A DNA stretch of 60,401 bases from Proteobacteria bacterium CAG:495 (GCA_000432275.1 HF995323.1:121957-182357), one strand, 5' to 3'. Counted from the first letter of the stretch, positions 4,696 through 23,399 are shown. Numbers and translations: made by a program. Notes: generated by a model from the sequence alone, not told the origin.

Positions 4696-5284
4696 CTAAG
4701 CATCTATATTCCAACTGCTTAGGATCTTGTTTTGTCTGCAAAAATTTCTGCGCCAAACAATCCGTTGTTTTAATAAAACGAGCAGGATTTCCAGCCCAAA
4801 CTTCTCCTGAAGGAACATCTTTTGTAACAACGCTGCCTGCTCCGATAATTGAGTTATCACCAATGGTAACACCTGGTAACAATATAGAACGGCAACCTAT
4901 AAAACAATTATTTCCGATTTTGATTCGCCCGTATCTTCTCATGTCTTCACTACTGTTTATGTATTTGCTACAATTATACCATGCACCATCATGAGTTAAA
5001 AAAGATACACCAAAGGAAACAACAACATTATCACCAATTTCAATTAAATACGGCTCTGATCCAAAATCAGGAAAAGAAAAAGGATATGGATGAATAACAA
5101 ATTGAACATTTTTTCCAACAGTTACCCCCAGAGATCTTGCATATTCAGAAGAATCACAAACACGACTTAATTTAGATAAATAAGATAAACACTTAGAATT
5201 AGATTTCTTATATGAGAAAACAGGAATCCCAAACAAACAAATAGATCTTGTTCCGTCGAACTTTTTTATTTTTTTCAAAAACAT
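4676..5284 (-). CDS. left-handed beta-helix (hexapeptide repeat) O-acetyltransferase
   Basis: 202 aa. The hexapeptide tract IKIGNNCFIGCRSILLPGVTIGDNSIIGAGSVVTKDVPSGEVWAGNPARFI is typical of the MAT/CysE-like acetyltransferase family. Confidence 0.8.
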   Translation of the reverse strand: MFLKKIKKFDGTRSICLFGIPVFSYKKSNSKCLSYLSKLSRVCDSSEYARSLGVTVGKNVQFVIHPYPFSFPDFGSEPYLIEIGDNVVVSFGVSFLTHDGAWYNCSKYINSSEDMRRYGRIKIGNNCFIGCRSILLPGVTIGDNSIIGAGSVVTKDVPSGEVWAGNPARFIKTTDCLAQKFLQTKQDPKQLEYRCLVDCKKG

Positions 5285-5305
5285 ATCACTTATTCCGATA
5301 ATCCG

Positions 5306-8140: not shown

Positions 8141-8373
8141 CGACCCGACACCTTTGCTAATAAAACTTTATTGAAATAAAGCTATCACAGCGCAAAGATA
8201 TGAGTCAAACTATTTTTGGTTTTTAATAACAGATAAATAAAACCAACTATTCACAATACAAACTTAAATTTATTTAACTGACTTTGTCATGGGATACGCT
8301 TCCGGACGCTTAGCATCACCCAAAAATTCCAAATAACAATTTGGCTGAAAAAATGAAATTAAAAATACAGATA

Positions 8374-8400
8374 CAAAAAAACCACCTAATTAAGGTGGTT
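8374..8400 (-). terminator. rho-independent terminator downstream of tRNA-Val
   Basis: On the minus strand, AACCACCttaattaGGTGGTT is followed by TTTTTTT. It begins 7 nt beyond the tRNA 3' end. Confidence 0.6.
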
Positions 8401-8406
8401 TCAAAT

Positions 8407-8482
8407 TGGTGGGCGCTGAGAGGTTCGAACTCCCGACCCTCTCGGTGTAAACGAGATGCTCTTCCAGCTGAGCTAAGCGCCC
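8407..8482 (-). tRNA. tRNA-Val (anticodon UAC)
   Basis: The reverse complement GGGCGCTTAGCTCAGCTGGAAGAGCATCTCGTTTACACCGAGAGGGTCGGGAGTTCGAACCTCTCAGCGCCCACCA folds as a 76-nt cloverleaf. Anticodon stem TCTCG/CGAGA, loop TTTACAC, encoded CCA. Confidence 0.95.
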
Positions 8483-8685
8483 ATCTTGTTTACGAAAGAG
8501 TTTATACACTTATAAAAATAATTAATCAAGCAAAAAAATAAAAAAATTTGATATTTTTTTAGAAAATGCCTTTTATCAAAAGGCTAGACAATTTCTTTTG
8601 CAAACAGAGCCGCGGACTTTGCCAATGCGCCAATAAAAACGGGCTTCCGCAATGGGAAACCCGTTTTAAAGTGCTCTATAAACTT

Positions 8686-8708
8686 AAGGACTGGCGCAGC
8701 CAGTCCTT
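8686..8708 (-). terminator. hairpin downstream of hupB
   Basis: AAGGACTGGCgcaGCCAGTCCTT has a 10-bp stem and a 3-nt loop, and starts 8 nt beyond the hupB stop. The trailing T-tract is only moderate. Confidence 0.45.
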
Positions 8709-8715
8709 GCTTATA

Positions 8716-8988
8716 TTAGTTTACAGAATCTTGCAAAGCTTTACCAGCTTTGAATTTAGCCTGTTTGCGAGCCGGGATTTTGATAGCTGCGCCGGTGCGC
8801 GGATTGCGGCCGGTAGTAGCTGCACGTTTAGAAACGGCAAAAGTACCAAAACCAACCAAACGAACTTCATCACCTTTCTTCAAAGCGTTGGTGATGGAAG
8901 CAACAAATGCATCAAGAGCCTTAGCAGAATCAGTTTTGGTAAGGCCTGTTTCGCTAGCGATGCTAGCAATCAATTCGTTTTTATTCAC
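8716..8988 (-). CDS. hupB: nucleoid-associated DNA-binding protein HU
   Basis: 90 aa. MNKNELIASIA...GDEVRLVGFGTFAVSKRAATTGRNPRTGAAIKIPARKQAKFKAGKAL is a canonical HU/IHF fold sequence. It sits in the conserved lon-hupB-tRNA-Val neighbourhood. Confidence 0.95.
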   Translation of the reverse strand: MNKNELIASIASETGLTKTDSAKALDAFVASITNALKKGDEVRLVGFGTFAVSKRAATTGRNPRTGAAIKIPARKQAKFKAGKALQDSVN

Positions 8989-10730: not shown

Positions 10731-13103
10731 TCAGTTGACCGAAGCCTGCTCCGCTTTAAGCGGCTCGCAACGGCACAATTGTGTCAGCGGCTTCACTTCT
10801 CCGTTAAGCGCTATCTTCAAAACCTCTCCGACCTCTGAAACCGGAATGATTTTCAGGCCTTTTCTCACATTTTCCGGAATTTCCTTCAAATCCTTTTCAT
10901 TATCTTTAGGGATAATGACGGTTTTAATTCCGCCGCGCAAAGCCGAAAGCAGTTTTTCTTTCAGTCCGCCGATGGGCAGCACCCTGCCCTGCAACGTAAT
11001 CTCCCCGGTCATCGCAACATCTTTGCGAACCGGAATCTTCGTCAGCACCGAAACGAGAGTCGTATACATCGCTATGCCGGCGGAAGGTCCGTCTTTGGGC
11101 GTAGCCCCCTCCGGAACATGAACGTGAATGTCCGTTTTGCCGAAAACATCAGGATCAATCCCCAATTCCATAGAATGGGAACGAACCACGGAATACGCCG
11201 TCTCAATGGATTCTTTCATAACATCTCCCAGCTTTCCCGTTTGTTTGATGTTTCCCTTGCCCGGCATATCAACGGCTTCAATAAACAAAATGTCTCCGCC
11301 GACTTCCGTCCATGCCAGTCCGGTAGTAACGCCGACATGGTCTTCTTCTTCAGCTTCGCCATAACGGAATTTCTTAACTCCCAGATATTTGTCAAGATTA
11401 GCCGCTGCAACCGTAACCTTCTTTTCTTTGGAAAGCAGAATCTCCTTAACCGCCTTGCGGGCTATTTTTGCCAATTCGCGTTCCAAGTTACGAACTCCGG
11501 CCTCACGGGTATAATAACGGATGATGTCTCTGATAGCGTCTTCTTCTATCTTAAGCTCGTTTTCCTTGATGGCCATTTCCTTAAAGGTTTTGGGAATCAG
11601 ATGACGTTCGGCAATCTGTATTTTTTCATCTTCGGTATAACCTGACAATCGTATAATTTCCATACGGTCAAGCAGTGGACGCGGCATATCGAGAGAGTTG
11701 GCCGTCGTCACAAACATAACGTCAGACAAATCATAATCAACTTCCAGATAGTGGTCGTTAAAGCTTGAATTCTGCTCCGGATCCAAAACTTCCAACAGCG
11801 CCGAACTCGGATCGCCGCGGTAATCGTTGCCGAGTTTGTCTATTTCATCGAGCAGAAACAACGGATTAGACGTTGCCGCTTTTTTCATTCCTTTAATTAT
11901 TTTGCCCGGCATAGAACCAATATAAGTCCGACGATGGCCGCGAATTTCCGCTTCATCGCGCATACCGCCGAGAGAAGCGCGTACAAAACTGCGCCCGGTA
12001 GCTCTGGCTATCGACTTTCCTAAAGAAGTCTTACCGACGCCCGGAGGGCCGACCAGACACAAAATCGGACCTTTGACTTTGTCGGCCCGGGATTGCACGG
12101 CCAAATATTCGACAATGCGTTCCTTAACCTCTTCCAGTCCGTAATGGTCTTCTTCCAGAATTTCCATAGCCTTGCTCAAGTCTTTATTTACTTTGGAGCG
12201 TTTTTTCCAGGGAATGTCCAGCATCCAGTCCAGATAATTGCGGACAACCGTTGCCTCTGCCGACATTGAGCTCATAGATTTGAGCTTTTTAACTTCAGCC
12301 AGGGCTTTTTCCTTTGCTTCCTTGGACAGCTTGGTGTTCTCAATCTTTTTCATATATTCGGCGATTTCGGCATCGTCGTCTCCGTCGCCGAGCTCTTTCT
12401 GAATAGCCTTCATCTGCTCGTTCAGATAATATTCTTTTTGGCTTTTCTCCATCTGCTTTTTAACGCGATTCTTGATTCTGTTTTCCACCTCAAGCATCGT
12501 GATTTCCGCATCCATAAAGCCCAAAATCTGTTCAAAACGTTCGCTTAAGGTTGTCCCTTCAAGCAAAGCCTGCTTTTCCGGAATCTTTAATGCCAGATGA
12601 GAAGCGATGGTATCCGCCAGTTTGCTGTAATCTTCTATTTGGTTGACCGCCACCAAAACCTCGGGAGGAGTCTTTTTGGAAAGTTTGACATATTCCTCAA
12701 ACTGCGACAAAACGGCGCGAACCAAAGCTTCCAGCTCCTGATTGTTGTTTTCTATCTCCGGCAGAATGGTTACGTTTGCTTCCATAAAGGATTTGGTGTT
12801 GTAAAACTTGTCGATTTTAACCCGCTCCAACCCCTCAATCAAAACCTTTACCGTACCGTCAGGCAGCCGCAACAGCTGTAAAACCGTGCCGATGGTTCCG
12901 ACATGATAAACGTCACTGCTGGTCGGGTCTTCAATTGCGGCATCTTTTTGGGTGGTAAGGATAATGTTCTGATCCTTATCGACAACTTCCTGCAAGGCGT
13001 TAATCGACTTCTCCCGTCCCACAAACAACGGAACAATCATCTTCGGATATACCACAATATCGCGCAACGGAAGTACAGGATATTTCTCTTTCTTAGCAAC
13101 CAT
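10731..13103 (-). CDS. lon: ATP-dependent Lon protease
   Basis: 790 aa. N-terminal LON domain (VLPLRDIVVYPKMIVPLFVGR), Walker A GPPGVGKTS, and protease active-site motif PKDGPSAGIAM. Confidence 0.98.
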   Translation of the reverse strand: MVAKKEKYPVLPLRDIVVYPKMIVPLFVGREKSINALQEVVDKDQNIILTTQKDAAIEDPTSSDVYHVGTIGTVLQLLRLPDGTVKVLIEGLERVKIDKFYNTKSFMEANVTILPEIENNNQELEALVRAVLSQFEEYVKLSKKTPPEVLVAVNQIEDYSKLADTIASHLALKIPEKQALLEGTTLSERFEQILGFMDAEITMLEVENRIKNRVKKQMEKSQKEYYLNEQMKAIQKELGDGDDDAEIAEYMKKIENTKLSKEAKEKALAEVKKLKSMSSMSAEATVVRNYLDWMLDIPWKKRSKVNKDLSKAMEILEEDHYGLEEVKERIVEYLAVQSRADKVKGPILCLVGPPGVGKTSLGKSIARATGRSFVRASLGGMRDEAEIRGHRRTYIGSMPGKIIKGMKKAATSNPLFLLDEIDKLGNDYRGDPSSALLEVLDPEQNSSFNDHYLEVDYDLSDVMFVTTANSLDMPRPLLDRMEIIRLSGYTEDEKIQIAERHLIPKTFKEMAIKENELKIEEDAIRDIIRYYTREAGVRNLERELAKIARKAVKEILLSKEKKVTVAAANLDKYLGVKKFRYGEAEEEDHVGVTTGLAWTEVGGDILFIEAVDMPGKGNIKQTGKLGDVMKESIETAYSVVRSHSMELGIDPDVFGKTDIHVHVPEGATPKDGPSAGIAMYTTLVSVLTKIPVRKDVAMTGEITLQGRVLPIGGLKEKLLSALRGGIKTVIIPKDNEKDLKEIPENVRKGLKIIPVSEVGEVLKIALNGEVKPLTQLCRCEPLKAEQASVN

Positions 13104-13141
13104 ATTTTACCACCTTAAAAATTAACATCATTGTGTATTCT

Positions 13142-13170
13142 TATATAAGAAAACTTTCCGGCTTATGCAA
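13142..13170 (-). promoter_or_regulatory. putative sigma-70-type promoter for lon
   Basis: On the minus strand, TTGCAT (13170-13165), a 17-nt spacer, then TATATA (13147-13142), about 40 nt upstream of the lon ATG. Found by pattern match only. Confidence 0.25.
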
Positions 13171-13356
13171 TGCGGAACAGTAACTTTTTTGCCACAAACG
13201 CACTTTTTGGGCAATGCTTAAGTTTTTAATCCACAGCCCTGGCCGCGAAATCCAACTTTAACATGAATAAGTATTAATAAAGAATTTGCAGATTTAAAAT
13301 AATAATATATGATGCAATAAAAAAACAAACACCAGAAAACCCCATGGAGAAATTTG

Positions 13357-13608
13357 ATGGCCGCCGCAAAGAAAAGCGCACTTTCCAATGATGATATTAT
13401 GGTTGAAATTTCCGTCACGCTGGGAACCGCGGACCTCCGGGTCAACCAGCTGCTGAAGTTGGGACGCGGAGCCGTTGTCGAGTTGGACCGGGATATCAAC
13501 GACAACGTAGATATTTACGCCAATGACGTTCTTATCGGTCATGGCGAAGTCGTCATCACCGAAAACGAAACTATCGGCATCAGCGTAACCGACACAAATT
13601 CCAAATAA
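13357..13608 (+). CDS. FliN/SpoA-domain protein (flagellar or T3SS C-ring family), orphan
   Basis: About 83 aa. VEISVTLGTADLRVNQLLKLGRGAVVELDRDINDNVDIYANDVLIGHGEVVITENETIGISVTD matches the FliN/YscQ SpoA-domain consensus. GGAGA Shine-Dalgarno 6 nt before ATG 13357; the ORF track starts at TTG 13354. Confidence 0.7.
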   Translation: MAAAKKSALSNDDIMVEISVTLGTADLRVNQLLKLGRGAVVELDRDINDNVDIYANDVLIGHGEVVITENETIGISVTDTNSK

Positions 13609-13620
13609 GCAACCGTAACA

Positions 13621-14382
13621 ATGAACTTTAATCTGAAAAAAACACTGAAAAAATCCCTGCGCCGGATTACCAAGTCAGATTTTGTCATAAACCTGATTTC
13701 GTCAGCTATATATTGGTATGCCCGTCTCGTCGGCAAAACCACAAGCTGGGAGGTTCGCGGCATAGACAACTTCTATCGCGAATGGGATGACAATCGCGGC
13801 ATCATTCTGGTTGCCTGGCACGGACGAGCCCTTATGCTGCCTTATTTCTGGAACCGAAAAAAACCGCTTAATGCCCTGGTTTCATTACACCGGGACGGCA
13901 GAATGATAGCCGGCCTACTTGAAAAATTCGGTCTTGGCACCATCGGCGGTTCCAGCAACGAAAACGCCAGCGGCGCCGCGGTAAAACTGATGCACTCGCT
14001 CAAAGACGATACTGCCATCTGCATTATCCCCGACGGTCCCCGGGGACCCCGGATGCATATGGGACGCTCTCCTCTTTATTATGCGCAAAAAACCGGAAAA
14101 CCTATCGCCTGTATTTCGTACAGCATCGCCAACTCTTTCCGCATAACAAAATCCTGGGACCACATGATGATCCCCCTCCCGTTTTCCCGCGGCATTTGCA
14201 CCGTGAGCGAAGCGATGTCCGTTCCCGCCGACGCAGACAATAACGAATTGGAAACCTACCGCCTTCGTCTGGAAGAGCAGCTTAACCGAATAAGCCGGGA
14301 ATGCGATATCAAAATGGGACTGATTCCTGACGAACCCGGCGTCTGCAAAAATCAAACCGAAGAAAATGGACAACCGCGATGA
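13621..14382 (+). CDS. DUF374 family protein (lysophospholipid acyltransferase-like), commonly upstream of waaA
   Basis: 253 aa. Motifs LVAWHGRALMLPYFW, HRDGRMIAGLLEKFGLGTIGGSS and IPDGPRGPR are typical of DUF374. It overlaps the waaA start by 4 nt. Confidence 0.8.
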   Translation: MNFNLKKTLKKSLRRITKSDFVINLISSAIYWYARLVGKTTSWEVRGIDNFYREWDDNRGIILVAWHGRALMLPYFWNRKKPLNALVSLHRDGRMIAGLLEKFGLGTIGGSSNENASGAAVKLMHSLKDDTAICIIPDGPRGPRMHMGRSPLYYAQKTGKPIACISYSIANSFRITKSWDHMMIPLPFSRGICTVSEAMSVPADADNNELETYRLRLEEQLNRISRECDIKMGLIPDEPGVCKNQTEENGQPR

Positions 14383-15641
14383 TGTTTATGAAAATTTACA
14401 ACGCCTTGATTACCGTTTTATATCCTCTGGTTATCAAACGCTATATTAATAAGCGCAAAGAAAACGGCAAGGAAGACGTCAAAAGATTCAACGAACGTAT
14501 CGGGCGTCCCGCTCTCAAACGTCCCGAAGGAAAATTAATCTGGCTTCACGGTGCCTCTGTAGGCGAGTCCGTTTCCATGCTGCCTCTGATTCAAAAAATT
14601 TTGGACACTTACCCTCAGGCGCACGTTATGGTCACCACCGGAACCGTCACTTCCGCCGACGTAATGAGCAAACGGCTTCCCGAGCGCGCCTTTCACCAGT
14701 TTATACCCATTGACAACCCAACTTTCACCACCCGGTTTGTCAAATACTGGCATCCCGACGTCGCCCTCTGGTTTGAGTCGGAATTCTGGCCGGCAATGCT
14801 GTCGTCAATCAAACGTAAAAATATTCCGCTGATTTTAATCAACGGCCGAATTTCCAACAAAACCTTCAAACGCTGGCAGCAATTTGACTTTATCAGCAAA
14901 GAGCTGCTCTCCTGCTTCACCCTTTGCCTCGGACAATCGGAAGAAGACGCCTACCGCCTCGGCGTTTTGGGCGCGGCCAACTCCGTCTGCCTCGGCAATC
15001 TGAAATACGCCGGCCTGCCGCTGCCTATCGACCAGGAAAAGAAACAGGAACTGTTGCAACAAATCGGAACCCGCACTCTATGGCTGGCAAGTTCAACCCA
15101 CAATGACGAAGAACGCCGAATTGCCAAGATACACAAACGGCTCAAGAAAAAATTTCCTGACATTCTGACGATTATCGCCCCCAGACATCCCCAGCGCGGC
15201 CCCGAAATACAAAAAGAGATTCGGGAATTGGAGTTGCAAACGGCTTTACGATCGGCAGGAGAAGAAATAACCGGACAAACTGACATCTACATTGCAGACA
15301 CTATTGGAGAAATGGGCTTATGGTATGACGTTGCCAAAGTTGTGTTTATCGGCGGCTCCCTGATTCCGCACGGCGGACAAAACTTTATCGAACCCTCGCG
15401 GATGCGCGATGCGGTCATCGTCGGCCCCCATATGCATAACTTCACCGATGCGGTCAACCGTGCAAAAAAAGCAGATGCGCTGATACAGGTGACCGATACA
15501 CAGGAACTGGAAGAAACAATTGCCCATCTGCTCAGCAACAAAGATTTTTGCAATGCCAAATGCAGCCTCGCCTATAATTGGGCCGCCAGTGAAAATAAAG
15601 TGCTTGAAAACATTATGGATAAAGTTAAAGGTTTTATTTAA
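14379..15641 (+). CDS. waaA: 3-deoxy-D-manno-octulosonic acid (Kdo) transferase
   Basis: 420 aa. The N-terminal WLHGASVGES motif and the overall GT30 layout match WaaA. It sits between DUF374 and lpxK. Confidence 0.9.
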   Translation: MMFMKIYNALITVLYPLVIKRYINKRKENGKEDVKRFNERIGRPALKRPEGKLIWLHGASVGESVSMLPLIQKILDTYPQAHVMVTTGTVTSADVMSKRLPERAFHQFIPIDNPTFTTRFVKYWHPDVALWFESEFWPAMLSSIKRKNIPLILINGRISNKTFKRWQQFDFISKELLSCFTLCLGQSEEDAYRLGVLGAANSVCLGNLKYAGLPLPIDQEKKQELLQQIGTRTLWLASSTHNDEERRIAKIHKRLKKKFPDILTIIAPRHPQRGPEIQKEIRELELQTALRSAGEEITGQTDIYIADTIGEMGLWYDVAKVVFIGGSLIPHGGQNFIEPSRMRDAVIVGPHMHNFTDAVNRAKKADALIQVTDTQELEETIAHLLSNKDFCNAKCSLAYNWAASENKVLENIMDKVKGFI

Positions 15642-15642
15642 G

Positions 15643-16593
15643 ATGCGAACCCCAATATATTGGAAAAACAAAAATATTATATCTTCGCTGCTTTTGCCGT
15701 TGGGATGGTTGTACGGTCTGGCGACCGCTTTGCGTCTTGCCCTGACCAAACCGCAAAAAGTCAAGGCCAAAGTTATCTGCATTGGCAATATTACCGCCGG
15801 AGGCACCGGCAAAACGCCGGTATCCGTCGCCATAGCTGCCCTTCTGAAACAAAACGGCCTTAATCCCTGGTTCGTCACCAGAGGATATGGCGGAACTCGG
15901 CAGGATATTATTGTCAACCCGGCCGAACACGCAGCAGCCGAAGTCGGAGACGAACCGCTGTTGTTGGCCCGGGAAGCCTCCGTCGTCGTCAACAAACAGC
16001 GTTGGCTGGGAGCGCAAAAGGCCATCGCAAACGGTGCCGACTGTATCATTATGGATGACGGCTTTCAAAATCCCGCACTTCATAAAGATTTGTCGTTTAT
16101 CGTCATTGACGGGGCCATCGGTTTCGGTAATCGGCGCTGCATTCCTTCCGGTCCGTTGCGGGAATTTCTTTCTGCCGGCCTGAAACGGGCCGATGCTGCC
16201 ATTATTATAGGGCAAGACAAAACCAATCTGAGCGGATTGTTAAAAGACCTTCCCGTTTTTCACGGCAGCATAACGCCGGTTGAACCGTTGCGGGACAACC
16301 TCAACGTTATCGCCTTTGCCGGCATCGGACGACCGCAGAAATTTTACCGCTCATTACAGGAACTCAGCTTTAACCTTATAAAGACCGTAGACTTTCCCGA
16401 CCATCACTTTTATACGGAAGGAGAATTGAAACAACTGATTTCCGAAGCAGAGGAAAAACAGGCCGTCTTATATACCACCGCCAAAGATTACGTAAAAATT
16501 CCGGCTGCGCTGCGCAACCGTTTCCGTGTTTTGGAAATAACGATTACTTGGCGCGAACCGGAACTTTTAACCCAATTTCTGCTTAACACTTAA
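15643..16593 (+). CDS. lpxK: tetraacyldisaccharide 4'-kinase
   Basis: The start is taken at ATG 15643 (MRTPIYWKNK...), 2 nt after the waaA stop. P-loop GNITAGGTGKTP. The ORF-track start at 15520 would overlap waaA by 122 nt. Confidence 0.9.
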   Translation: MRTPIYWKNKNIISSLLLPLGWLYGLATALRLALTKPQKVKAKVICIGNITAGGTGKTPVSVAIAALLKQNGLNPWFVTRGYGGTRQDIIVNPAEHAAAEVGDEPLLLAREASVVVNKQRWLGAQKAIANGADCIIMDDGFQNPALHKDLSFIVIDGAIGFGNRRCIPSGPLREFLSAGLKRADAAIIIGQDKTNLSGLLKDLPVFHGSITPVEPLRDNLNVIAFAGIGRPQKFYRSLQELSFNLIKTVDFPDHHFYTEGELKQLISEAEEKQAVLYTTAKDYVKIPAALRNRFRVLEITITWREPELLTQFLLNT

Positions 16594-17519
16594 TTGGCTT
16601 CATCCCACAAATTGGCATAACTTCCGTTGGCAAAGGCGTCTCCGCTGATAAAACGATAATTTTTATCCAGCGTCGCAATTTTAGCCATATCTGCCTCATC
16701 CAGCTCAATAGCGAGAGAAGCATAGTTTTCCCGCAAATGAGCCTCATGAACCGACTTTGGAATAACGGCTACGCCGCGCTGCATCTGCCATGCCAGCACG
16801 ACCTGAGCCGACGTTGCCTTAATACGTTCCGCAATTTCCTGAATGACCGGATTTTCCAATACCGATTCCTGCCCTTCGTGAGGTTGTGACCCCAATGGTG
16901 AATAGGCCGTAACTTCAATATTGTTCTTATGGCAAAAATCTATCAAATCGTTCTGCTGCAGCAAGGGATGATTCTCAATTTGGTTAACCGCAGGAACAAT
17001 CTCGGCTTTTTCAATCAAATCGCCCAATTTCTTGGCCGTAAAATTAGAAACGCCGATACTTTCGACGGAGCCTTCCCCCTGAAGTTTCTCCATTGCGGCC
17101 CATGTAACCTCCAAGGGCAAATCGCTCAGCGGAATCAAGTCTTCCGCGCGTTGGGGAATACCGGTGCCTTTTTTCTGCGCTACCGGCCAGTGCATCAGAA
17201 ACAAATCCAGATAATCCAGTTGCAAATCTTTTAACGTCTGCTCCAACGCCGGTTTTACATCTTCCGGTGCATGCGCGTCGTTCCATAGTTTAGAGGTGAC
17301 AAACAATTCTTTGCGCTTAATGTCCCCTTCTCTGATTGCATCGTTTATCGCCTGCCCGATTTCGCCCTGATTGCCGTAAATCGGAGCACAGTCAATATGC
17401 TTATATCCCAGTTTTATAGCCCAGCGTACCGCCTGATAAGTCTCTCCCGGCTTAGACTGCCAGGTACCCATACCGATAATCGGCATTTCACTGTCGTTAT
17501 TCAGCTTAACATACTTCAT
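16590..17519 (-). CDS. aldo/keto reductase family oxidoreductase
   Basis: MKYVKLNNDSEMPIIGMGTWQ..., LFVTSKLWN and IPKSVHEAHLRENY are canonical AKR motifs. GGAGGAG Shine-Dalgarno about 9 nt upstream of ATG 17519. The longer ORF to 17585 starts at GTG within the leader. Confidence 0.9.
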   Translation of the reverse strand: MKYVKLNNDSEMPIIGMGTWQSKPGETYQAVRWAIKLGYKHIDCAPIYGNQGEIGQAINDAIREGDIKRKELFVTSKLWNDAHAPEDVKPALEQTLKDLQLDYLDLFLMHWPVAQKKGTGIPQRAEDLIPLSDLPLEVTWAAMEKLQGEGSVESIGVSNFTAKKLGDLIEKAEIVPAVNQIENHPLLQQNDLIDFCHKNNIEVTAYSPLGSQPHEGQESVLENPVIQEIAERIKATSAQVVLAWQMQRGVAVIPKSVHEAHLRENYASLAIELDEADMAKIATLDKNYRFISGDAFANGSYANLWDEAN

Positions 17520-17625
17520 GACAAACCACTCCTCCAACGAAAAAAATATTAAAATCAACCCTAATATAATCGTAAGAATTTCCACTTAAAGGAGCCGTAC
17601 GCGAAAAAAAGATTGCCATAAAACA

Positions 17626-17657
17626 AAAACGCAGCCCCCACACCTGACTGCGTTTTT
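17626..17657 (-). terminator. rho-independent terminator of the SNF2-like/ibrA/ibrB operon
   Basis: On the minus strand, AAAAACGCAG-13 nt loop-CTGCGTTTTT is followed by GTTTT. It lies 23 nt beyond the ibrB-like stop. Confidence 0.55.
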
Positions 17658-17679
17658 AAACAACTTGCAAAAAAATGAG

Positions 17680-18207
17680 TTATTTCACTTCCCAACTGCG
17701 GGAAAATTCTTCGTCCTTGAACAATGCGGCCAATCCGGTAACTTGTTTCATTCTGAGCAACTCGTCGGCCGACATACCGATATTCTTACAAATCCAGCTG
17801 TCGCTCTTGCCCATTTCAACTAACTCGGCAACAATATTACTCATCAAATCGACATTATGGCTGCCGCGAGCCCGGTTATGGCGAATAGTCGACGCCATCC
17901 GCTCTCCCAGCTCCTTATTGATTACCACGACGGGAATTTTACCGTGTTCACGGGCATAAATGCGATCGCTGGTCTTCATAATCGTATAACGGTGGAAACC
18001 GTCGACAACGATATATTTGTCAGCCTCTTTGTCATAATAACATACAATCGGCTGAGTAAACCCATCTTCCCAGATGGAAAGTTCCAGCAGTTTCATTTCC
18101 GGAGGTGCAACTCGGTTGGGGTTATAATCATTGGCCTGCACCTTCTCAACGGGCACGCCGATGACATTATAAACCGGACTAACAAACTCTTTCATATTTA
18201 ACCTCAT
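17680..18207 (-). CDS. ibrB: ParB/Srx-fold nuclease-like protein, IbrB-like
   Basis: 175 aa. VEKVQANDYNPNRV...PIVCYYDKEADKYIVVDGFHRYT carries the ParB-like nuclease DGxHR motif. 4-nt ATGA overlap with the upstream PAPS-reductase-family gene. Confidence 0.65.
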   Translation of the reverse strand: MRLNMKEFVSPVYNVIGVPVEKVQANDYNPNRVAPPEMKLLELSIWEDGFTQPIVCYYDKEADKYIVVDGFHRYTIMKTSDRIYAREHGKIPVVVINKELGERMASTIRHNRARGSHNVDLMSNIVAELVEMGKSDSWICKNIGMSADELLRMKQVTGLAALFKDEEFSRSWEVK

Positions 18208-19505
18208 AGTTTTTTATATTTTTCAAGTAACTCTTTTTCTCTTTGAGTCTGCTTTTTAGTCTGTGCAAATCCCATATACTTGCATAAATGGTCGTTTTTC
18301 AGAATACAGATGGCCATTCTTTTCCATGAAGGAATGTCAATGGTCGACTTAATGTCATCAGTGTCATCGGGTGTTCCCAAAAACTGAATCCGGTCTTTGT
18401 CTTTACTGTATCCGCTTTTGCCGTTATGCCGTATTCTGTAGTTACAGGCTTCAAGCTCTTTCAAAGCGTCATCACACACCACACCACCTTTCTTCCACCA
18501 AAAACGGATAGAAGTTTTAAATTTGGCAACATAATTTTCGCGGATTGAATCCGGAAGCGTCGCCAACAAAAATTTAACATACGAACGCCAGGTATGCCCT
18601 TTCGGCAAAGTAATCTTGCCGGCACCCATCAATTTTGAATTGCCGTACATCGCGGCAAAATTAGCCCCGTTTACGCGGGAAACCACTCTGGCCCATGTTC
18701 CCGGTTCCAAGACACGATAAAGGTTGAGGCTCTCTTTTGCATTTTCATGATAAGGGCTGGAAACCCGCATCTGATTGATAGACAGCCCGGCGCGGTAATA
18801 AAGGTCATAAATCTTGTTATACTCATAACCTTCTTTGCCGTTTGCAATCCATACGTCTTTAGTAGACCAGTCATACAACGGATAGGCGTTATAGAAATTC
18901 TTGCCCATTTTGGTTGTCCACTGCGAATTTTTCATCAATGTCTTGCGCGTATTGGCATAAGCCCGGTAACGGTTGATAGACTCATCGGCCCTGATGCCAA
19001 CCATACACAACGTGGTGCCCTCATGATGTCTGGCATACCAATGCCCAAACTCGGCATACAAATCCTCCTGAGCCATTTTATACTTATAAGTTTCAATCGG
19101 ATTGTTCTTCAGGTTAATAATATAGGGCATCGAGGGCATCGGACGCACCCACAGTTCTTCCTTTTCGTCATCCCAGGGGTACCAATACATTTGATAATTG
19201 CTGACGGCGCAGCGCGATCCCATCGGCAAACATACCCAATAAGGCTCAATATCGTCTATGTTGTCTTCAAACATCTTGGTAACATAGTCTGTCGTCAGCT
19301 GATACTGCGCCTCAAAATCCTGATGGAAAACACCGATTTTTTTCTGAATGTTATGTTTGCGTTTATAGTCAAGAACCATATTCAGCAGCAAACCGCTGTC
19401 TTTTCCGCCGGAGAAAGACACATAAATATTGTCAAAATTTTCAAACGCAAACTTAATTCTTTCCATCGTTGCGTCAAAAACATTCATGTCCTTATAAATC
19501 TTCAT
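18204..19505 (-). CDS. ibrA: PP-loop PAPS-reductase-family protein with long C-terminal extension, IbrA-like
   Basis: 433 aa. N-terminal PP-loop motif FSGGKDSGLLLNMVLDY. The roughly 200-aa C-terminal extension (...WRSYVKFLLATLPDSIRENYVAKF...) resembles the DUF3440 part of IbrA. 4-nt overlaps at both ends. Confidence 0.7.
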   Translation of the reverse strand: MKIYKDMNVFDATMERIKFAFENFDNIYVSFSGGKDSGLLLNMVLDYKRKHNIQKKIGVFHQDFEAQYQLTTDYVTKMFEDNIDDIEPYWVCLPMGSRCAVSNYQMYWYPWDDEKEELWVRPMPSMPYIINLKNNPIETYKYKMAQEDLYAEFGHWYARHHEGTTLCMVGIRADESINRYRAYANTRKTLMKNSQWTTKMGKNFYNAYPLYDWSTKDVWIANGKEGYEYNKIYDLYYRAGLSINQMRVSSPYHENAKESLNLYRVLEPGTWARVVSRVNGANFAAMYGNSKLMGAGKITLPKGHTWRSYVKFLLATLPDSIRENYVAKFKTSIRFWWKKGGVVCDDALKELEACNYRIRHNGKSGYSKDKDRIQFLGTPDDTDDIKSTIDIPSWKRMAICILKNDHLCKYMGFAQTKKQTQREKELLEKYKKL

Positions 19506-20755
19506 AGTTTCAAAGCCTCATCTCTTGACATAATATTACAAACGTTGCTCAATACGTTTTCCTTGCGGTTAAGATTATCCTTTATCAGACTTTCAAGCCT
19601 GGTTCCTACCCAAAAATTGTAGATATTCAAATTTATAACATCTTTATTATAAAAGCTAGTTAATGTTTGAATTTTATCCTTATAATCAAAAGTCTGTGTA
19701 AAATAAATAATATTGTTGCACCCTTTAAGGTTCAAACGCGGACTTTCGACCTTATACGTACAAATCATGATATCCACATTTTTCTCGAACCGGTTAAGAG
19801 CCTTTAGCTTGTTCGAATTTCCGGACATCACCACAAACTTTTTATCTCCGAAGCCTCCTGCTTCTTTGAAAAAACGCACCTCGCTTAAAAACTTGGTGTA
19901 AATAATAACCTTCTCCTTGCGTTCCAAAATCTCGCTGACCAATTTAAACAATGCATCAACCTTATGCTTGCATATGGTATAAAGATATTGAAAACGCTGC
20001 ACTACCTGCAAAAACGCCACTTGTTCCTTATCTTTCAGGAAATCTTCTTTTTCCAGTTGATAAACGGCGGCTTCCTGAGGCGTAAGCTCAAAATCGCTAT
20101 CATAATAGGTTATCTTAAGATTATCCTCAAAATCACAAGCAAGTAAATAGGGTTTTATCATTTTCACCAGCTTTGCTTCATTTTTTGGCGTCGACCACCT
20201 CTTCCACACCTCAAAATCATCCATATAAAACGGCAAAAAGCTGTGCATAAACTGCGTCTCCGTCATATTGAGGATTGCCGAGTCCATAAATTGCGTTTGA
20301 GAATACAGGTCAATCAGCCCCTGAGTCAACGGCGTTCCCGACAAAATAAGACGATATTTGAACTTATGCTTCATGGATAAAAGCCGTCTGGTTCTTCCCG
20401 CCTCCGTGTTTTTAATCGTAATGCTCTCGTCCACTACGCAAAAAATACGATATTTGTCAGCCAGATTATAAAGTTTCAAATACTGCCCGTCGTTCAGAGA
20501 AATGTTTTCAATCGAAAAAAAACATATCCGGTTAGATATTTCCCGAGCCACCGCCTTGATGTCATTGACATAGTCATCCGTGGCCAGATAGTTTGACGGC
20601 GCAATCCATACGATAAAATCGATATTTTTGCGAAAATGCCGGATAAGCCTGAACACTATTCGGATTTTTTCCATGCCGCGCTTCATAAACAGCGCACCCG
20701 AACTTAGCCCGGCAAACCGTTCGCAGATTTTTTTGTGGTCGAACTTTGCTCTCAT
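19502..20755 (-). CDS. short SNF2-family-like helicase core with degenerate ATPase motifs
   Basis: 417 aa. Motif II VVDESITIKN, motif III LILSGTPLTQGLIDLY, and a helicase-C-like segment VIIYTKF...MICTYKVESPRLNLKGCNNIIYF. GMEKI occupies the Walker A position instead of GxGKT, and I see no motif VI arginines. Alignment was done by eye. Confidence 0.55.
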   Translation of the reverse strand: MRAKFDHKKICERFAGLSSGALFMKRGMEKIRIVFRLIRHFRKNIDFIVWIAPSNYLATDDYVNDIKAVAREISNRICFFSIENISLNDGQYLKLYNLADKYRIFCVVDESITIKNTEAGRTRRLLSMKHKFKYRLILSGTPLTQGLIDLYSQTQFMDSAILNMTETQFMHSFLPFYMDDFEVWKRWSTPKNEAKLVKMIKPYLLACDFEDNLKITYYDSDFELTPQEAAVYQLEKEDFLKDKEQVAFLQVVQRFQYLYTICKHKVDALFKLVSEILERKEKVIIYTKFLSEVRFFKEAGGFGDKKFVVMSGNSNKLKALNRFEKNVDIMICTYKVESPRLNLKGCNNIIYFTQTFDYKDKIQTLTSFYNKDVINLNIYNFWVGTRLESLIKDNLNRKENVLSNVCNIMSRDEALKL

Positions 20756-21120
20756 GATACAAAACCCATTTTGATGACTAATTTTCAGATATCTAATATA
20801 TGTAATCGTTCATCTGTCGTTTCAAAGGAATTGTCGTCAAATATACCGGAAGCCCCATCACCAAAGAAGCCGTCATGCCTTAAAATATAATCCGGCCGCA
20901 GCCAAATGCTCCAAAAGTACTAACCAACAACCACATATACTAAAGTATATATACTTTTTATCTAAGGGCAAAAGAAATTCAGGATAATTAACATAAAAAA
21001 ATGCTTTCCGACCCGCAAAAACAACCGCAGATACAAGGCAATAGAACGATACTCGGAAAAAGCTGCACGCCAAAATAACAAATTTCGCCTTTACAACATC
21101 TGCATCAGTTCCGGACTATC

Positions 21121-21149
21121 AAAAAAGCCCGGAAAATTCCGGGCTTTTT
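21121..21149. terminator. hairpin/T-run immediately 3' of tRNA-Ser
   Basis: aaaaaaGCCCGGaaaattCCGGGCttttt has a 6-bp GC stem flanked by A6 and T5. It lies 3 nt from the tRNA-Ser 3' end. Confidence 0.6.
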
Positions 21150-21151
21150 AG

Positions 21152-21239
21152 TGGCGGAGAGTACAGGACTCGAACCTGTGCATCGTTATTCACGATGACG
21201 GATTAGCAATCCGCTGCATTACCACTCTGCCAACTCTCC
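21152..21239 (-). tRNA. tRNA-Ser (anticodon GCU), class II with long variable arm
   Basis: The reverse complement is GGAGAGTTGGCAGAGTGGTAATGCAGCGGATTGCTAATCCGTCATCGTGAATAACGATGCACAGGTTCGAGTCCTGTACTCTCCGCCA. Anticodon stem GCGGA/TCCGT, loop TTGCTAA, variable-arm hairpin CATCGTgaataACGATG, encoded CCA. Confidence 0.95.
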
Positions 21240-21674: not shown

Positions 21675-22031
21675 TTACTCAAGCGTCTTTATAAACTTGG
21701 AATACCGAACTTTGCAGTCTTCACACTGTTTCAGGGCTACATCCCGCATAATTTTATTTTCATACAAGCCGATAAAATAATCACCTGCCGAAACCGTCAA
21801 TATTGAATCCGTCTCGTCATAACTCAGAGACAGACCGATTAGCGGCGCCTGATATTCGCTGCCGGACAACTGCTCGTAATACTCCTTGGCGATTTTAAAT
21901 TTAACCGCAACCGGAACATCTTTATTTCCTGCTTCCCGGTTGGCAATACATTTTGCCGCCGTTTCAAACCGAATATAGTTTCCGATTAAAATCGGTGAAA
22001 ATATATCATAAACCGGCCATGGCTCGCTCAT
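21675..22031 (-). CDS. hypothetical protein
   Basis: 118 aa. Strong GAGGAGGAGAG Shine-Dalgarno upstream of the ATG, 13 nt after the ZIP transporter stop. No family recognised. Confidence 0.5.
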   Translation of the reverse strand: MSEPWPVYDIFSPILIGNYIRFETAAKCIANREAGNKDVPVAVKFKIAKEYYEQLSGSEYQAPLIGLSLSYDETDSILTVSAGDYFIGLYENKIMRDVALKQCEDCKVRYSKFIKTLE

Positions 22032-22044
22032 ACTCTCCTCCTCT

Positions 22045-22821
22045 TCAGTCTAAAACAATACTGATATAAGTCATCGCGATAAAGCCGACAAAAACCGCTG
22101 CCGCCGACCGGTTGGTTTCCTTTTGGCCATAGGTTTCCGGCAAAATTTCATTAATCACCACAAACAGCAGCGTACCGCCGGCCAATGCCATGCCGTACGG
22201 CACAATGTTGAAACTGATGTCCATCAGCAGCAAACCGACAATCGCGCCCAACGGCTGAACCAGTCCGATAGCCAACGCAGTCAACGCCGCCCGCAGACGG
22301 GAGTTTCCTGCCGCTACCAAAGAAATCGCTATTGTCAGCCCTTCGGGAATATTATGCGCGGCAATCCCCACCACCAGAGACAACGGACTGATAATGTCCT
22401 CCGCACCGTAAGCAACGCCGACGGCCAAGCCTTCCGGCAATTTGTGCAGCGTAATGGCAATAATAAACAGCCAGGCCTTTTTCAAATCAAAATGCGGGCC
22501 GTGATGCCCCATTGAGTTATGCTCATGCGGAATCAGCAAATTAAGTATCCAAACCAGCAAAACGCCTGCAAAAACTGTCAATACATAACCCAGCGCTCCG
22601 CTGTAAATATTGCGCGAATCACGCACGATTTCATGCATCGACGGTACCAGCAGCGAAAAAAACGATGCCGCCAGCATCACCCCCGCCGCCAAATTCAGAA
22701 GCTGGTTAATTTCGGTTTTCAAATACCTTTTTTTCAAAAATATCATAAAACCGCCAATTCCGGTTACCAGTCCGGCCGCCAAAGCTGCCAATAATCCCTG
22801 CATAAAAACCTGATTCACCAT
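22045..22821 (-). CDS. zupT: ZIP family divalent metal (zinc) transporter, ZupT-like
   Basis: 258 aa, polytopic. Signature motifs HKLPEGLAVG and HNIPEGLTI. Confidence 0.85.
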   Translation of the reverse strand: MVNQVFMQGLLAALAAGLVTGIGGFMIFLKKRYLKTEINQLLNLAAGVMLAASFFSLLVPSMHEIVRDSRNIYSGALGYVLTVFAGVLLVWILNLLIPHEHNSMGHHGPHFDLKKAWLFIIAITLHKLPEGLAVGVAYGAEDIISPLSLVVGIAAHNIPEGLTIAISLVAAGNSRLRAALTALAIGLVQPLGAIVGLLLMDISFNIVPYGMALAGGTLLFVVINEILPETYGQKETNRSAAAVFVGFIAMTYISIVLD

Positions 22822-23399
22822 TTTGCATTCCTAATCTTTTTCATAATCCGATTGTAATACGGCAATACTCCGTCATCAGCACAATAATCTTTAACTTCGT
22901 CAAAACTAATCCAACGTACACCGGAATTTTCATCCGGTTTAGACATTATTTCTTCGGTTTCGTCAGCTTCCAGACAATAAACAACGTTATAATGTAAGTG
23001 CCGGGGAACAAAAACACCACGTTTGTAGTGATTATGCACGACCATCACATTCAGATCTATCGGTTCGTCAACCAAAGCACTGACCTCCTTCAACGAGGTT
23101 TCTTCCTTGGTTTCTCTCAACGCCACCGCCAACAAATCAGCTTCACGGTCACTGTGTCCGCCCACCCAGGCCCAGGTTTTGAACATATTATGATAAATCA
23201 TCAAAACCTTGTTTCGCTCTTTGTTAACAATCCAACAAGAGGAAGAAAAATGCCCGACCAAATTTTCTCTGTCAAAAACCTTATTCCCATACGCATCAAC
23301 GAACTGCCTGAAAGATTGCCGTTCAGCCTCTTCTTCCTCGTCTGCTGAGCGATAACGCTCCAAAAACATTTTCAAGCTCTGTAAATCAACAATTTTCAT
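22815..23399 (-). CDS. NUDIX hydrolase
   Basis: 194 aa. Nudix box GGHSDREADLLAVALRETKEETSL. Confidence 0.85.
   Translation of the reverse strand: MKIVDLQSLKMFLERYRSADEEEEAERQSFRQFVDAYGNKVFDRENLVGHFSSSCWIVNKERNKVLMIYHNMFKTWAWVGGHSDREADLLAVALRETKEETSLKEVSALVDEPIDLNVMVVHNHYKRGVFVPRHLHYNVVYCLEADETEEIMSKPDENSGVRWISFDEVKDYCADDGVLPYYNRIMKKIRNAKW

Follow-up and report, generated by a model that had tools for sequence, protein, structure and literature searches.

An operon of SNF2-like, IbrA-like and IbrB-like genes beside tRNA-Ser in a gut alphaproteobacterium, and its phage- and plasmid-borne relatives

Gene organisation of the locus

This study concerns a three-gene operon of Proteobacteria bacterium CAG:495, analysed within a stretch of 60,401 nucleotides (GCA_000432275.1 HF995323.1:121957-182357; hereafter the window). 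The operon is placed between a tRNA-Ser(GCU) gene and an aldo-keto reductase (AKR) gene and encodes a protein with a SWI2/SNF2-type fold (SNF2L), a PP-loop protein of the IbrA/YbdN family (IbrA) and a ParB-like protein of the IbrB/YbdM family (IbrB), together referred to here as the triad (Table 1). The three overlapping minus-strand open reading frames (ORFs) described in an initial annotation of this DNA were reproduced at the same coordinates, with ATGA-type 4-nt overlaps at both gene junctions (19502–19505 and 18204–18207 in the ORF listing). The operon also has its own hairpin and T-run terminator, read directly in the sequence and folding at −16.4 kcal/mol (z = −3.0), which is missing from the list of a consensus terminator scan because its loop is longer than the 3–8 nt which that scan allows. 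The boundary formed by tRNA-Ser(GCU) and a hairpin was likewise recovered, the latter being the terminator of the tRNA gene itself (−18.7 kcal/mol, z = −3.6), and the genes flanking the operon on both sides are housekeeping genes according to the Pfam annotation of the context, as first proposed.

The AT-rich leader of about 400 bp noted initially is present in the window and presumably contains the operon promoter, but its length is not a conserved feature, the gap between tRNA and SNF2L gene being ~90–360 bp in relatives. An Rfam search of the leader for regulatory RNA gave the tRNA only. Low GC content relative to mutL, also pointed out initially, is real for SNF2L (39.2%, compared with 42.5% for IbrA, 46.0% for IbrB and 51.7% for mutL), although the compositional contrast is weak because the window as a whole averages 42.8%.

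Table 1. Coordinates of the operon and adjacent features in the window (aa, amino acids)
Feature	Coordinates	Strand	Description
SNF2L gene	19502..20755	minus	417-aa ORF, SWI2/SNF2-fold product
IbrA-like gene	18204..19505	minus	433-aa ORF, PP-loop domain + DUF3440
IbrB-like gene	17680..18207	minus	175-aa ORF, ParB/Srx-fold product
Operon intrinsic terminator	17626..17657	minus	13-bp stem, then T-run
Untranslated AT-rich region, tRNA-Ser to SNF2L gene	20756..21151	minus	37.6% GC
tRNA-Ser(GCU)	21152..21239	minus	ARAGORN; Rfam 62 bits; slot boundary, outside operon
Terminator hairpin of tRNA-Ser	~21120..21148
AKR ORF	16590..17585		Extendable to GTG at 17585, giving 331 aa with hydrophobic N-terminus
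118-aa hypothetical ORF	21675..22031		Between zupT and tRNA-Ser
NUDIX gene	22815..23399		Between mutL and zupT

The IbrA-like and IbrB-like proteins

The product of the second gene has the IbrA architecture assigned to it initially, with a match to Pfam DUF3440 (PF11922) over profile positions 1–181 of 182 (E 9e-77), a match to PAPS_reduct (PF01507) above the gathering score (7e-12), and homology to phrog_2302 (E 5e-111) and to E. coli YbdN (31% identity, E 7e-67). It thus combines a PP-loop domain, a full-length DUF3440 and an adjacent, co-directional ParB-like partner, the features by which IbrA/YbdN proteins are recognised. The N-terminal PP-loop SFSGGKDS is invariant in the IbrA alignment, as are the motifs GxRxxES and YPxxDW, and there is no invariant cysteine in this alignment, which argues against IbrA being a CysH-type reductase or a DndC-type Fe-S enzyme. 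In the structural model, Foldseek matched the N-terminal domain to CysH, CysD, TtuA, TilS, NcsA and FAD synthase. Fold relatives of ATP-pyrophosphatase type (CysD, FAD synthase, TtuA and TilS) suggest substrate adenylation, and on the basis of motifs and modelled fold we predict that IbrA is an ATP pyrophosphatase or adenylyltransferase.

A role of IbrA in sulfur assimilation can be discarded, in agreement with the initial reading, which named a sulfur-assimilation operon as a finding that would refute it. The N-terminal domain shares its fold with CysH and CysD (Foldseek probability 1.0), but the CysH and CysD models fail (TIGR00434 for CysH scoring 19.2 bits against a cut-off of 165), the C-terminal redox cysteine of CysH is absent, and IbrA has an extra 190-aa DUF3440. 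IbrA further differs from CysH in its ParB-like and SNF2-like partners and in the spread of the family over phages and plasmids.

Two observations concern the family more broadly. A stand-alone protein of ~80–100 aa (IPSWKR...ILKND; phrog_15645), found at 5060–5461 of viral locus L100 and in 12 further viral loci, is homologous to the C-terminal end of DUF3440, and these free copies imply that the tip behaves as an independent mini-domain. Two apparent 'long IbrA' proteins (P0241 and P0242) contain internal duplications and were set aside as probable assembly artefacts.

The IbrB architecture of the third gene product is carried by 51% identity to E. coli YbdM (E 2e-55) and a match to phrog_2159 (E 2e-79), even though Pfam ParB_N (3e-5) reaches 24.4 bits and stays under its gathering score of 26.3 bits. 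In the window the protein contains DYNPN, VDGFHR and RHNRARGSH, and DYNPN, VDGFHR and RHNxARGxH show no variation among IbrB proteins from E. coli to phages, so that a ParB-type domain, the DGxHR motif and YbdM homology all place it in the IbrB/YbdM family. The second-best PHROG match is phrog_498, a family of ParB-domain phage DNA methyltransferases; NCBIfam gave weak matches to SerK and SbnI, and the PADLOC models gave none. We predict from these homologies that IbrB is a nucleotide-binding, DNA-associated partner of IbrA.

In viral relatives, IbrB may be joined to other domains. Some viral contigs (L112, L126, L130–L134 and L144) encode an IbrB N-terminally fused to an ectoine-synthase-type (EctC-type) cupin (PF06339, E 1e-36), an enzymatic accessory that would not be expected of a ParB-like protein. 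A domain of ~140 aa, which we call SCEH after its pattern W..SCEH..LT..NR.AW.G, accompanies IbrAB in viral loci without an SNF2 gene; it is free in 29 viral loci (L100 and 28 others), is fused to the C-terminus of IbrB in L143, L154, L166 and L169, and has no family match in Pfam or PHROG.

An SNF2-like partner lacking two ATPase motifs

Both the structural model and profile searches indicate that SNF2L has two RecA-like lobes with an SNF2-specific fold. Pfam SNF2-rel_dom (PF00176) matches at 8e-11 with coverage limited to the second half of lobe 1, Helicase_C matches at 8e-4, under its cut-off, and phrog_62 matches at E 9e-40; further profile matches include INO80 and Fft3. The AlphaFold model (predicted local distance difference test score, pLDDT, 79) was matched by Foldseek to the complete SWI2/SNF2 cores of SSO1653 (1z63), ISW1 and INO80 with a probability of 1.0 and a template modelling (TM) score of ~0.65.

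The SNF2-like core recognised initially is sound as regards the fold, and DESI is present in the window; the loss of Walker A and of the motif VI arginines had been overlooked. In the window, Walker A is degenerate (RGMEKIR in place of GxGKT) and motif VI has no arginines, reading TSFYNKD as against HRIYRTGQ in phage copies. Both Walker A and these arginines are gone in 59/59 alphaproteobacterial chromosomal copies, and in ~20 members of this clade the Walker B glutamate, retained in the window, is also replaced (DD, DG or DN). Viral SNF2 partners have a canonical Walker A, G[TS]GK[TS], in 23 of 24 cases (GTAKT in the other), DES in all 24, and RxxRxGQ as motif VI in 23, one ending in GN. The motifs are intact in the phage and mobile-element copies L073, FCL-2, CR28 and Pika and in the single Arcobacteraceae copy, L060. 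Searched for exhaustively among 1.84 billion cluster representatives, the SNF2L family proved to be small, with 33 clusters at E <= 1e-30 and 370 at E <= 1e-10. Walker A is kept in 105 of its 112 full-length representatives, and four of the seven exceptions are members of the alphaproteobacterial clade.

Since Walker A and the arginine fingers have been lost in every alphaproteobacterial copy, SNF2L cannot be an ATP-driven tracking motor here, and the DNA-tracking role first suggested for it has to be given up. The gene is not a truncated one: the family has a constant length of ~413–420 aa and homologues align from residue 1, which rules out that 5' sequence was lost at this locus and left traces in the leader. 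Among genome pairs with unsaturated synonymous sites, the ratio of nonsynonymous to synonymous substitution rates (dN/dS) of SNF2L is 0.02–0.13. Purifying selection on a protein of this kind makes a passive DNA-binding or adaptor role the most likely, and SNF2L is accordingly predicted, from its motifs, to be an ATPase-inactive DNA-binding scaffold or adaptor.

Distribution in gut Alphaproteobacteria, phages and plasmids

A scan with the SNF2L profile, taking one genome per species, returned 64 loci, 63 of them from uncultured gut Alphaproteobacteria, for which the sampled hosts were human, deer, chicken and mouse. Some of these loci are labelled Azospirillaceae, and two are Candidatus Scatocola, Rhodospirillales. 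The order SNF2L-IbrA-IbrB is identical in every locus with enough DNA (~60 species-level genomes), and the exact IbrA sequence of the window is indexed in 2,209 collection blocks; its species is very abundant in human gut assemblies.

Outside this lineage, IbrA relatives occur mostly on phages and plasmids. At least 7,000 matches to IbrA/IbrB-type pairs were found, and homologues of IbrA across the collections include 721 plasmids (among them those of Klebsiella and E. coli) and 223 phage records. In a survey of 80 viral contigs chosen for IbrA, IbrB adjoins IbrA in 76 loci, the remaining four being interrupted by contig ends. In 24 of the 80, IbrA-IbrB is immediately preceded by an SNF2 gene, always as SNF2-IbrA-IbrB and only where IbrA is at least 41% identical to that of the window. 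The initial view of the three genes as a unit is upheld by both the chromosomal and the viral surveys, in which the unit recurs. The pair also occurs without SNF2 in E. coli K-12 (ybdN-ybdM) and on the Klebsiella IncFIB, Vibrio and Subdoligranulum plasmids inspected. As the pair is found without SNF2, and with other accessories elsewhere, IbrAB appears to be the core of the module and SNF2 an optional third part.

Cultured phages with the triad are Lactobacillus phage CR28, Streptococcus phage Pika and its relatives, and Flavobacterium phage FCL-2; it is also present on L073, a metagenomic contig resembling a phage or an integrative and conjugative element. The cassettes of CR28 and phiAQ113, of the Streptococcus phages Pika, CHPC877 and D4276, and of FCL-2 contain the same three genes as the window, and in CR28 and Pika the order and the gene overlaps are also the same. 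The IbrA proteins of CR28 and the Streptococcus phages are 44–46% identical to that of the window. The phage SNF2 proteins differ in keeping Walker A, DExx and the motif VI arginines, the first and last of which are missing from SNF2L of the window. FCL-2 and L073 represent another type, with the order SNF2-IbrB-IbrA and a short IbrA (~376 aa), unlike the window. Phage cassette genes are annotated merely as helicase, PAPS reductase ('auxiliary metabolic gene', AMG) and ParB; in CR28 the three overlapping genes are listed as a helicase of 389 aa, a 'PAPS reductase' of 433 aa and a 'co-activator of prophage gene expression' of 173 aa. In prophage L096, the cassette lies between lysis-side genes and an integrase/ImmA module, a classic moron position.

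Chromosomal context and selection

The window belongs to a syntenic group of ~20 species with the gene order mutL-zupT-tRNA-Ser-triad-(AKR)-lpxK-waaA, across which tRNA-Ser is conserved upstream of the triad. Overall the triad occupies at least five chromosomal contexts, each common to several species. Their annotated neighbours are housekeeping genes (among them flagellar, HD hydrolase, CitMHS transporter, nitroreductase, BOF protein, MnmA and LysR), and no recurrent defence or mobility gene was found among them. The adjacency to tRNA-Ser is missing in the other contexts, of which there are at least four.

The presence of the triad beside tRNA-Ser, for which a comparison of sister genomes was suggested initially, varies between species but not within the species of the window, where the triad is found on all strain contigs extending to the locus. 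In an unbiased sample anchored on ZupT, L180 (85% ZupT and 77% MutL identity) has zupT-tRNA-Ser-(lipoprotein gene)-AKR-lpxK, with a slot empty of the triad, and L202 and L203 have an HD-like gene with msrB and msrA there instead. In some strains, represented by L082 (9757–15883) and L177 (~11700–18100), an element of 6–7 kb is inserted between tRNA-Ser and the 118-aa hypothetical ORF on one side and the SNF2L gene on the other, a site equivalent to ~20756–21151 of the window; it encodes a DUF6538-type integrase, REP_ORF2-G2P, DUF6626, a resolvase and a second integrase. These insertions imply that elements with no relation to the triad actively use tRNA-Ser for attachment. The locus has the variable occupancy of a tRNA-linked island, but neither an integrase between the tRNA and the AKR gene nor an att-type repeat of the tRNA 3' end flanking the triad was found.

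The proportion of synonymous differences (pS) within the syntenic group is ~0.75 for IbrA and IbrB, as for MutL and WaaA, indicating that synonymous sites are saturated. Mean proportions of nonsynonymous differences (pN) are 0.08 for IbrB, 0.10 for IbrA, 0.14 for WaaA, 0.16 for MutL, 0.25 for LpxK and 0.40 for SNF2L, and no other gene of the neighbourhood, MutL included, is as conserved as IbrA and IbrB. In unsaturated pairs, IbrA has a dN/dS of 0.01–0.03, and that of IbrB does not exceed 0.06 in 17 of 18 pairs. Because pS is as saturated as in the flanking genes, the high identity of IbrA and IbrB reflects purifying selection over long divergence, and the same value rules out recent horizontal spread as its source. 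The slow evolution of the pair is the reverse of that of a patchy, fast-evolving defence island, and the housekeeping neighbours and the lack of integrase and att repeat give such a framing no support. We read the triad as an old acquisition into a variable tRNA slot, followed by vertical inheritance and several relocations.

These data also bear on the idea that the operon is a non-functional remnant of a decayed prophage at a tRNA attachment site. It adjoins tRNA-Ser, the integration site of other elements, its SNF2L has lost the catalytic motifs, and nonsense alleles occur in two of 21 strain contigs. However, although synonymous divergence is saturated, ~60 species keep all three ORFs at full length, the genes are still translationally coupled and followed by the terminator, and the dN/dS values of all three genes effectively rule out a pseudogene, leaving a remnant extremely improbable.

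Several further observations were made around the operon. In a comparison of the closely related syntenic loci L043 and L065, flanking genes have pS of 0.20–0.27 (WaaA 0.48), SNF2L and IbrA have dS of 1.2–1.7 and IbrB 0.36, which suggests, from the sequence divergence, that alleles may have been replaced by recombination within the operon. Seven contigs sharing one context (L024, L025, L028, L030, L035, L038 and L072) end 2–3 kb downstream of the triad, hinting at a repeat or other assembly-breaking element. In the non-syntenic context of L074, a gene for an N6/N4 DNA methyltransferase (8162–8953), encoded on the other strand, precedes the triad at a distance of ~1 kb, a neighbour not seen in the other annotated contexts. 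Next to the operon in the window, the start of the AKR gene is uncertain, gene calls in other strains giving 298–350 aa, and the operon terminator is ~40 bp from the longest possible start. The 118-aa ORF has no Pfam, PADLOC, NCBIfam or PHROG match and is seen only in the species of the window and in two of the closest relative species (L011 and L012). The NUDIX gene varies in presence among strains, and in many contigs of the same species it is reduced to a 117-bp remnant covering ~20% of the protein.

Relationship to known systems

The domain content of the triad recalls systems known to act on DNA. The phosphorothioation enzymes of Dnd, Ssp and type 4 BREX (DndC, SspD and BrxP, respectively) are likewise PP-loop proteins of the PAPS-reductase superfamily, with DndB as the ParB-superfamily protein alongside which such an enzyme works on DNA. 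Superfamily pairings that act on DNA comprise DndC with DndB and DpdB assisting DpdA, and an inactive SNF2 module in DndH has been proposed as a DNA binder (PMC10853773, PMC12839542). In the Dpd system of 7-deazaguanine DNA modification, the ParB-like NTPase DpdB aids the DNA-modifying enzyme, and the SNF2-family proteins DpdE and DpdJ are included (PMC12839542).

Membership in these systems is ruled out by scores far under cut-offs and by missing partner genes. IbrA scores 17.4 bits with the DndC model TIGR03183 (cut-off 290) and 24 bits, as a partial match, with the PADLOC DndC model; it lacks the DndC cysteine dyad and Fe-S ligands, and has DUF3440 in place of the DUF4007 of BrxP or the C-terminal region of DndC. 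The PADLOC BrxP match amounts to 19.6 bits over 32 residues, and none of DndA, DndD, DndE, PglZ, BrxC and BrxL is encoded near the triad. As for Dpd, DpdE gave a weak PADLOC match (19 bits) to the generic SNF2 core only, the operon has no tRNA-guanine transglycosylase (TGT; DpdA), DpdC or preQ0 genes, and there is no TGT gene nearby. Zorya ZorD matches with 52 bits, restricted to the SNF2 core (positions 565–827 of 908), and the nuclease domain and ZorAB are absent at the window locus.

A function in anti-phage or anti-plasmid defence, in which IbrA and IbrB mark self or sense foreign DNA and the complex restricts or aborts infection, is nevertheless to be considered, given the resemblance of the domain set to Dnd (DndC and DndB), Dpd (DpdB and DpdE) and type 4 BREX (BrxP and helicase) and the weak PADLOC matches to ZorD, DpdE, DndC and BrxP. 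In temperate phages the cassette occupies the moron position by the lysogeny module, a frequent place of prophage defences, and the slot downstream of tRNA-Ser varies between species. A PAPS reductase, alone or with Arc- or ParBc-domain proteins, has also been listed as a candidate effector in nucleoid-protein-based defences (bioRxiv 10.64898/2026.04.06.716658). However, the operon has no nuclease or other effector, no dedicated PADLOC model exists for it and IbrB has no PADLOC match. Its annotated neighbours are housekeeping genes, it is present in every strain contig reaching the locus, IbrA and IbrB are more conserved than MutL, and the SNF2 ATPase is, judging by its motifs, inactive here. 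Moreover, lytic phages carry the same cassette, which a function benefiting the phage would suit at least as well. We thus regard defence as unlikely; of the conflict module envisaged initially, nucleic-acid modification is still a reasonable inference, and the restriction or anti-phage part finds no support at this locus, where the PADLOC matches are weak and generic.

Among the closest known counterparts of the pair are those of E. coli, where IbrA/IbrB of the ECOR-9 island and YbdN/YbdM of K-12 consist of the same PP-loop and DUF3440 protein with an overlapping ParB-like gene and share all catalytic-type motifs with the window. They differ in having no SNF2 gene, in that YbdN lacks a ~35-residue insert found in the DUF3440 of the window IbrA, and in an N-terminal extension of ~40 residues on the E. 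coli IbrB-type proteins. In work by Sandt et al. from 2002, E. coli IbrAB reportedly activated eib prophage genes, the one phenotype reported for the pair, and database names for the family ('co-activator of prophage gene expression') trace to this reported activity. It is thus conceivable that the proteins are a transcriptional co-activator pair, in which IbrB binds DNA like a ParB/KorB-type regulator with the help of IbrA and no covalent chemistry, the dead SNF2 serving as a DNA-bound cofactor. Strong conservation and a fixed chromosomal place would fit a housekeeping regulator, proteins of the Asgard virus HeimV2 have been described as IbrA/IbrB-type prophage transcriptional regulators (PMC8813620), and E. 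coli ybdNM is tightly repressed by CitR (PMC9068703). On the other hand, the PP-loop motif of IbrA and the ParB/Srx motifs of IbrB are invariant from E. coli to phages, indicating enzymatic turnover, and a simple activator would not usually be combined with an active SNF2 motor, an EctC-type cupin or other domains, as phage versions are. The sequence upstream of the operon yielded no conserved operator, and no prophage target gene is evident near the window locus. Pure co-activation seems unlikely to us on balance.

The fold relatives of IbrA raise another possibility, namely modification of RNA (tRNA), such as TilS- or TtuA-like base modification, or adenylation of a small molecule, such as a nucleotide-linked metabolite. 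TtuA, TilS, NcsA, FAD synthase and CysD are its N-terminal structural neighbours, the ParB/Srx fold includes small-molecule kinases to which the weak SerK and SbnI matches of IbrB could point, some viral IbrBs are fused to an ectoine-synthase-type cupin, and the operon adjoins a tRNA gene. Arguing otherwise are the recurrent SWI2/SNF2 partner, whose solved relatives act on double-stranded DNA, the ParB-domain phage DNA methyltransferases as next-best PHROG match of IbrB, the lack of an invariant cysteine for thiolation, and the absence of tRNA-Ser adjacency from the other contexts. This makes an RNA or small-molecule substrate quite improbable.

A proposed domesticated phage and plasmid module

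We propose that a phage and plasmid module with an IbrA-IbrB core became fixed in the chromosome long ago and that the locus is a copy of it. We infer that IbrA, IbrB and the SNF2 protein would form a complex acting on double-stranded DNA, a target suggested by the recurrent SWI2/SNF2 partner, whose solved relatives are double-stranded DNA translocases. IbrB, with a nucleoside triphosphate, and the SNF2 protein would engage DNA, with ATP-driven translocation in phages, and IbrA would use ATP to adenylate a substrate, leading to a covalent DNA modification or to a DNA-bound change that alters gene expression. Fusions of IbrB to the EctC-type cupin and to SCEH speak for an enzymatic, multi-part system rather than a plain transcription factor, and a DNA-bound regulatory outcome would fit the reported activation of prophage genes by E. 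coli IbrAB. Gut Alphaproteobacteria would have domesticated the module: the SNF2 partner would have lost ATP hydrolysis but remains under purifying selection, so that the complex would here be tethered or targeted by a pseudo-SNF2 subunit instead of being motor-driven, and IbrA and IbrB became some of the most constrained genes of the region.

Various observations weigh against this proposal. For no IbrA or IbrB homologue was a biochemical activity found in the literature searched, and the PP-loop relatives TilS and TtuA act on tRNA, which leaves room for an RNA substrate. The DUF3440 part of the IbrA model has no structural match in the PDB beyond the PP-loop domain and is of low confidence at residues 248–296; a sequence search of the PDB with IbrA gave zero matches. 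Comparison of the operon's upstream regions from 41 non-redundant species gave no conserved motif of parS-like or operator type. Premature SNF2L stops arose independently in two of 21 strain contigs of the species, at codon 227 (C679T) in L002, where IbrA and IbrB are still called full-length, and at codon 233 in L176, so that cells may be able to do without this subunit, at least for a while. Sequence identities further reveal that the history of SNF2 is discordant with that of IbrAB: the nearest SNF2L from outside the clade (L073, 47% identical) is paired with a distant IbrA (31%), and the nearest such IbrAs (L096 and L097, 56–59%) are paired with the most distant SNF2Ls (22–23%). Finally, domestication from a phage origin would follow from motif polarity, the motifs being intact in copies from elsewhere and lost within the clade, and from distribution rather than from a rooted phylogeny.

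Weighing these points, we are highly confident in the structural and evolutionary description of the triad, are divided evenly over the DNA-acting enzymatic mechanism, and see the proposal as a whole as standing about in the balance. A bolder form of it is tentative and, in our judgement, doubtful: IbrA-IbrB might be the catalytic core of a widespread new DNA-directed chemistry, either a covalent modification or a nucleotide-dependent DNA-bound switch, with interchangeable accessories in phages and plasmids and with a near-essential host function in gut Alphaproteobacteria, where the pseudo-SNF2 might act as a fast-evolving specificity or adaptor subunit.

Implications for the IbrA/IbrB family

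IbrA/IbrB pairs are very common, and 'PAPS reductase, auxiliary metabolic gene' or 'ParB partition protein' are the wrong labels routinely given to them. The pair itself is known; new here are an SNF2 protein as a recurrent, physically coupled third partner of IbrAB/YbdNM, pointing to double-stranded DNA as the site of action, and its domesticated, ATPase-dead form in gut Alphaproteobacteria. The latter amounts to a natural experiment, in which a module has been fixed in an abundant human-gut lineage with IbrAB above MutL in constraint and a dead motor maintained. Taken together, this argues for a core activity that needs no translocation and is of value to the cell. With 175–433 aa, the proteins are small and make concrete targets for biochemical work and for mass spectrometry of DNA modification. 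Should the chemistry turn out to be new, thousands of phage 'cysH-like AMG' annotations would have to be revisited.

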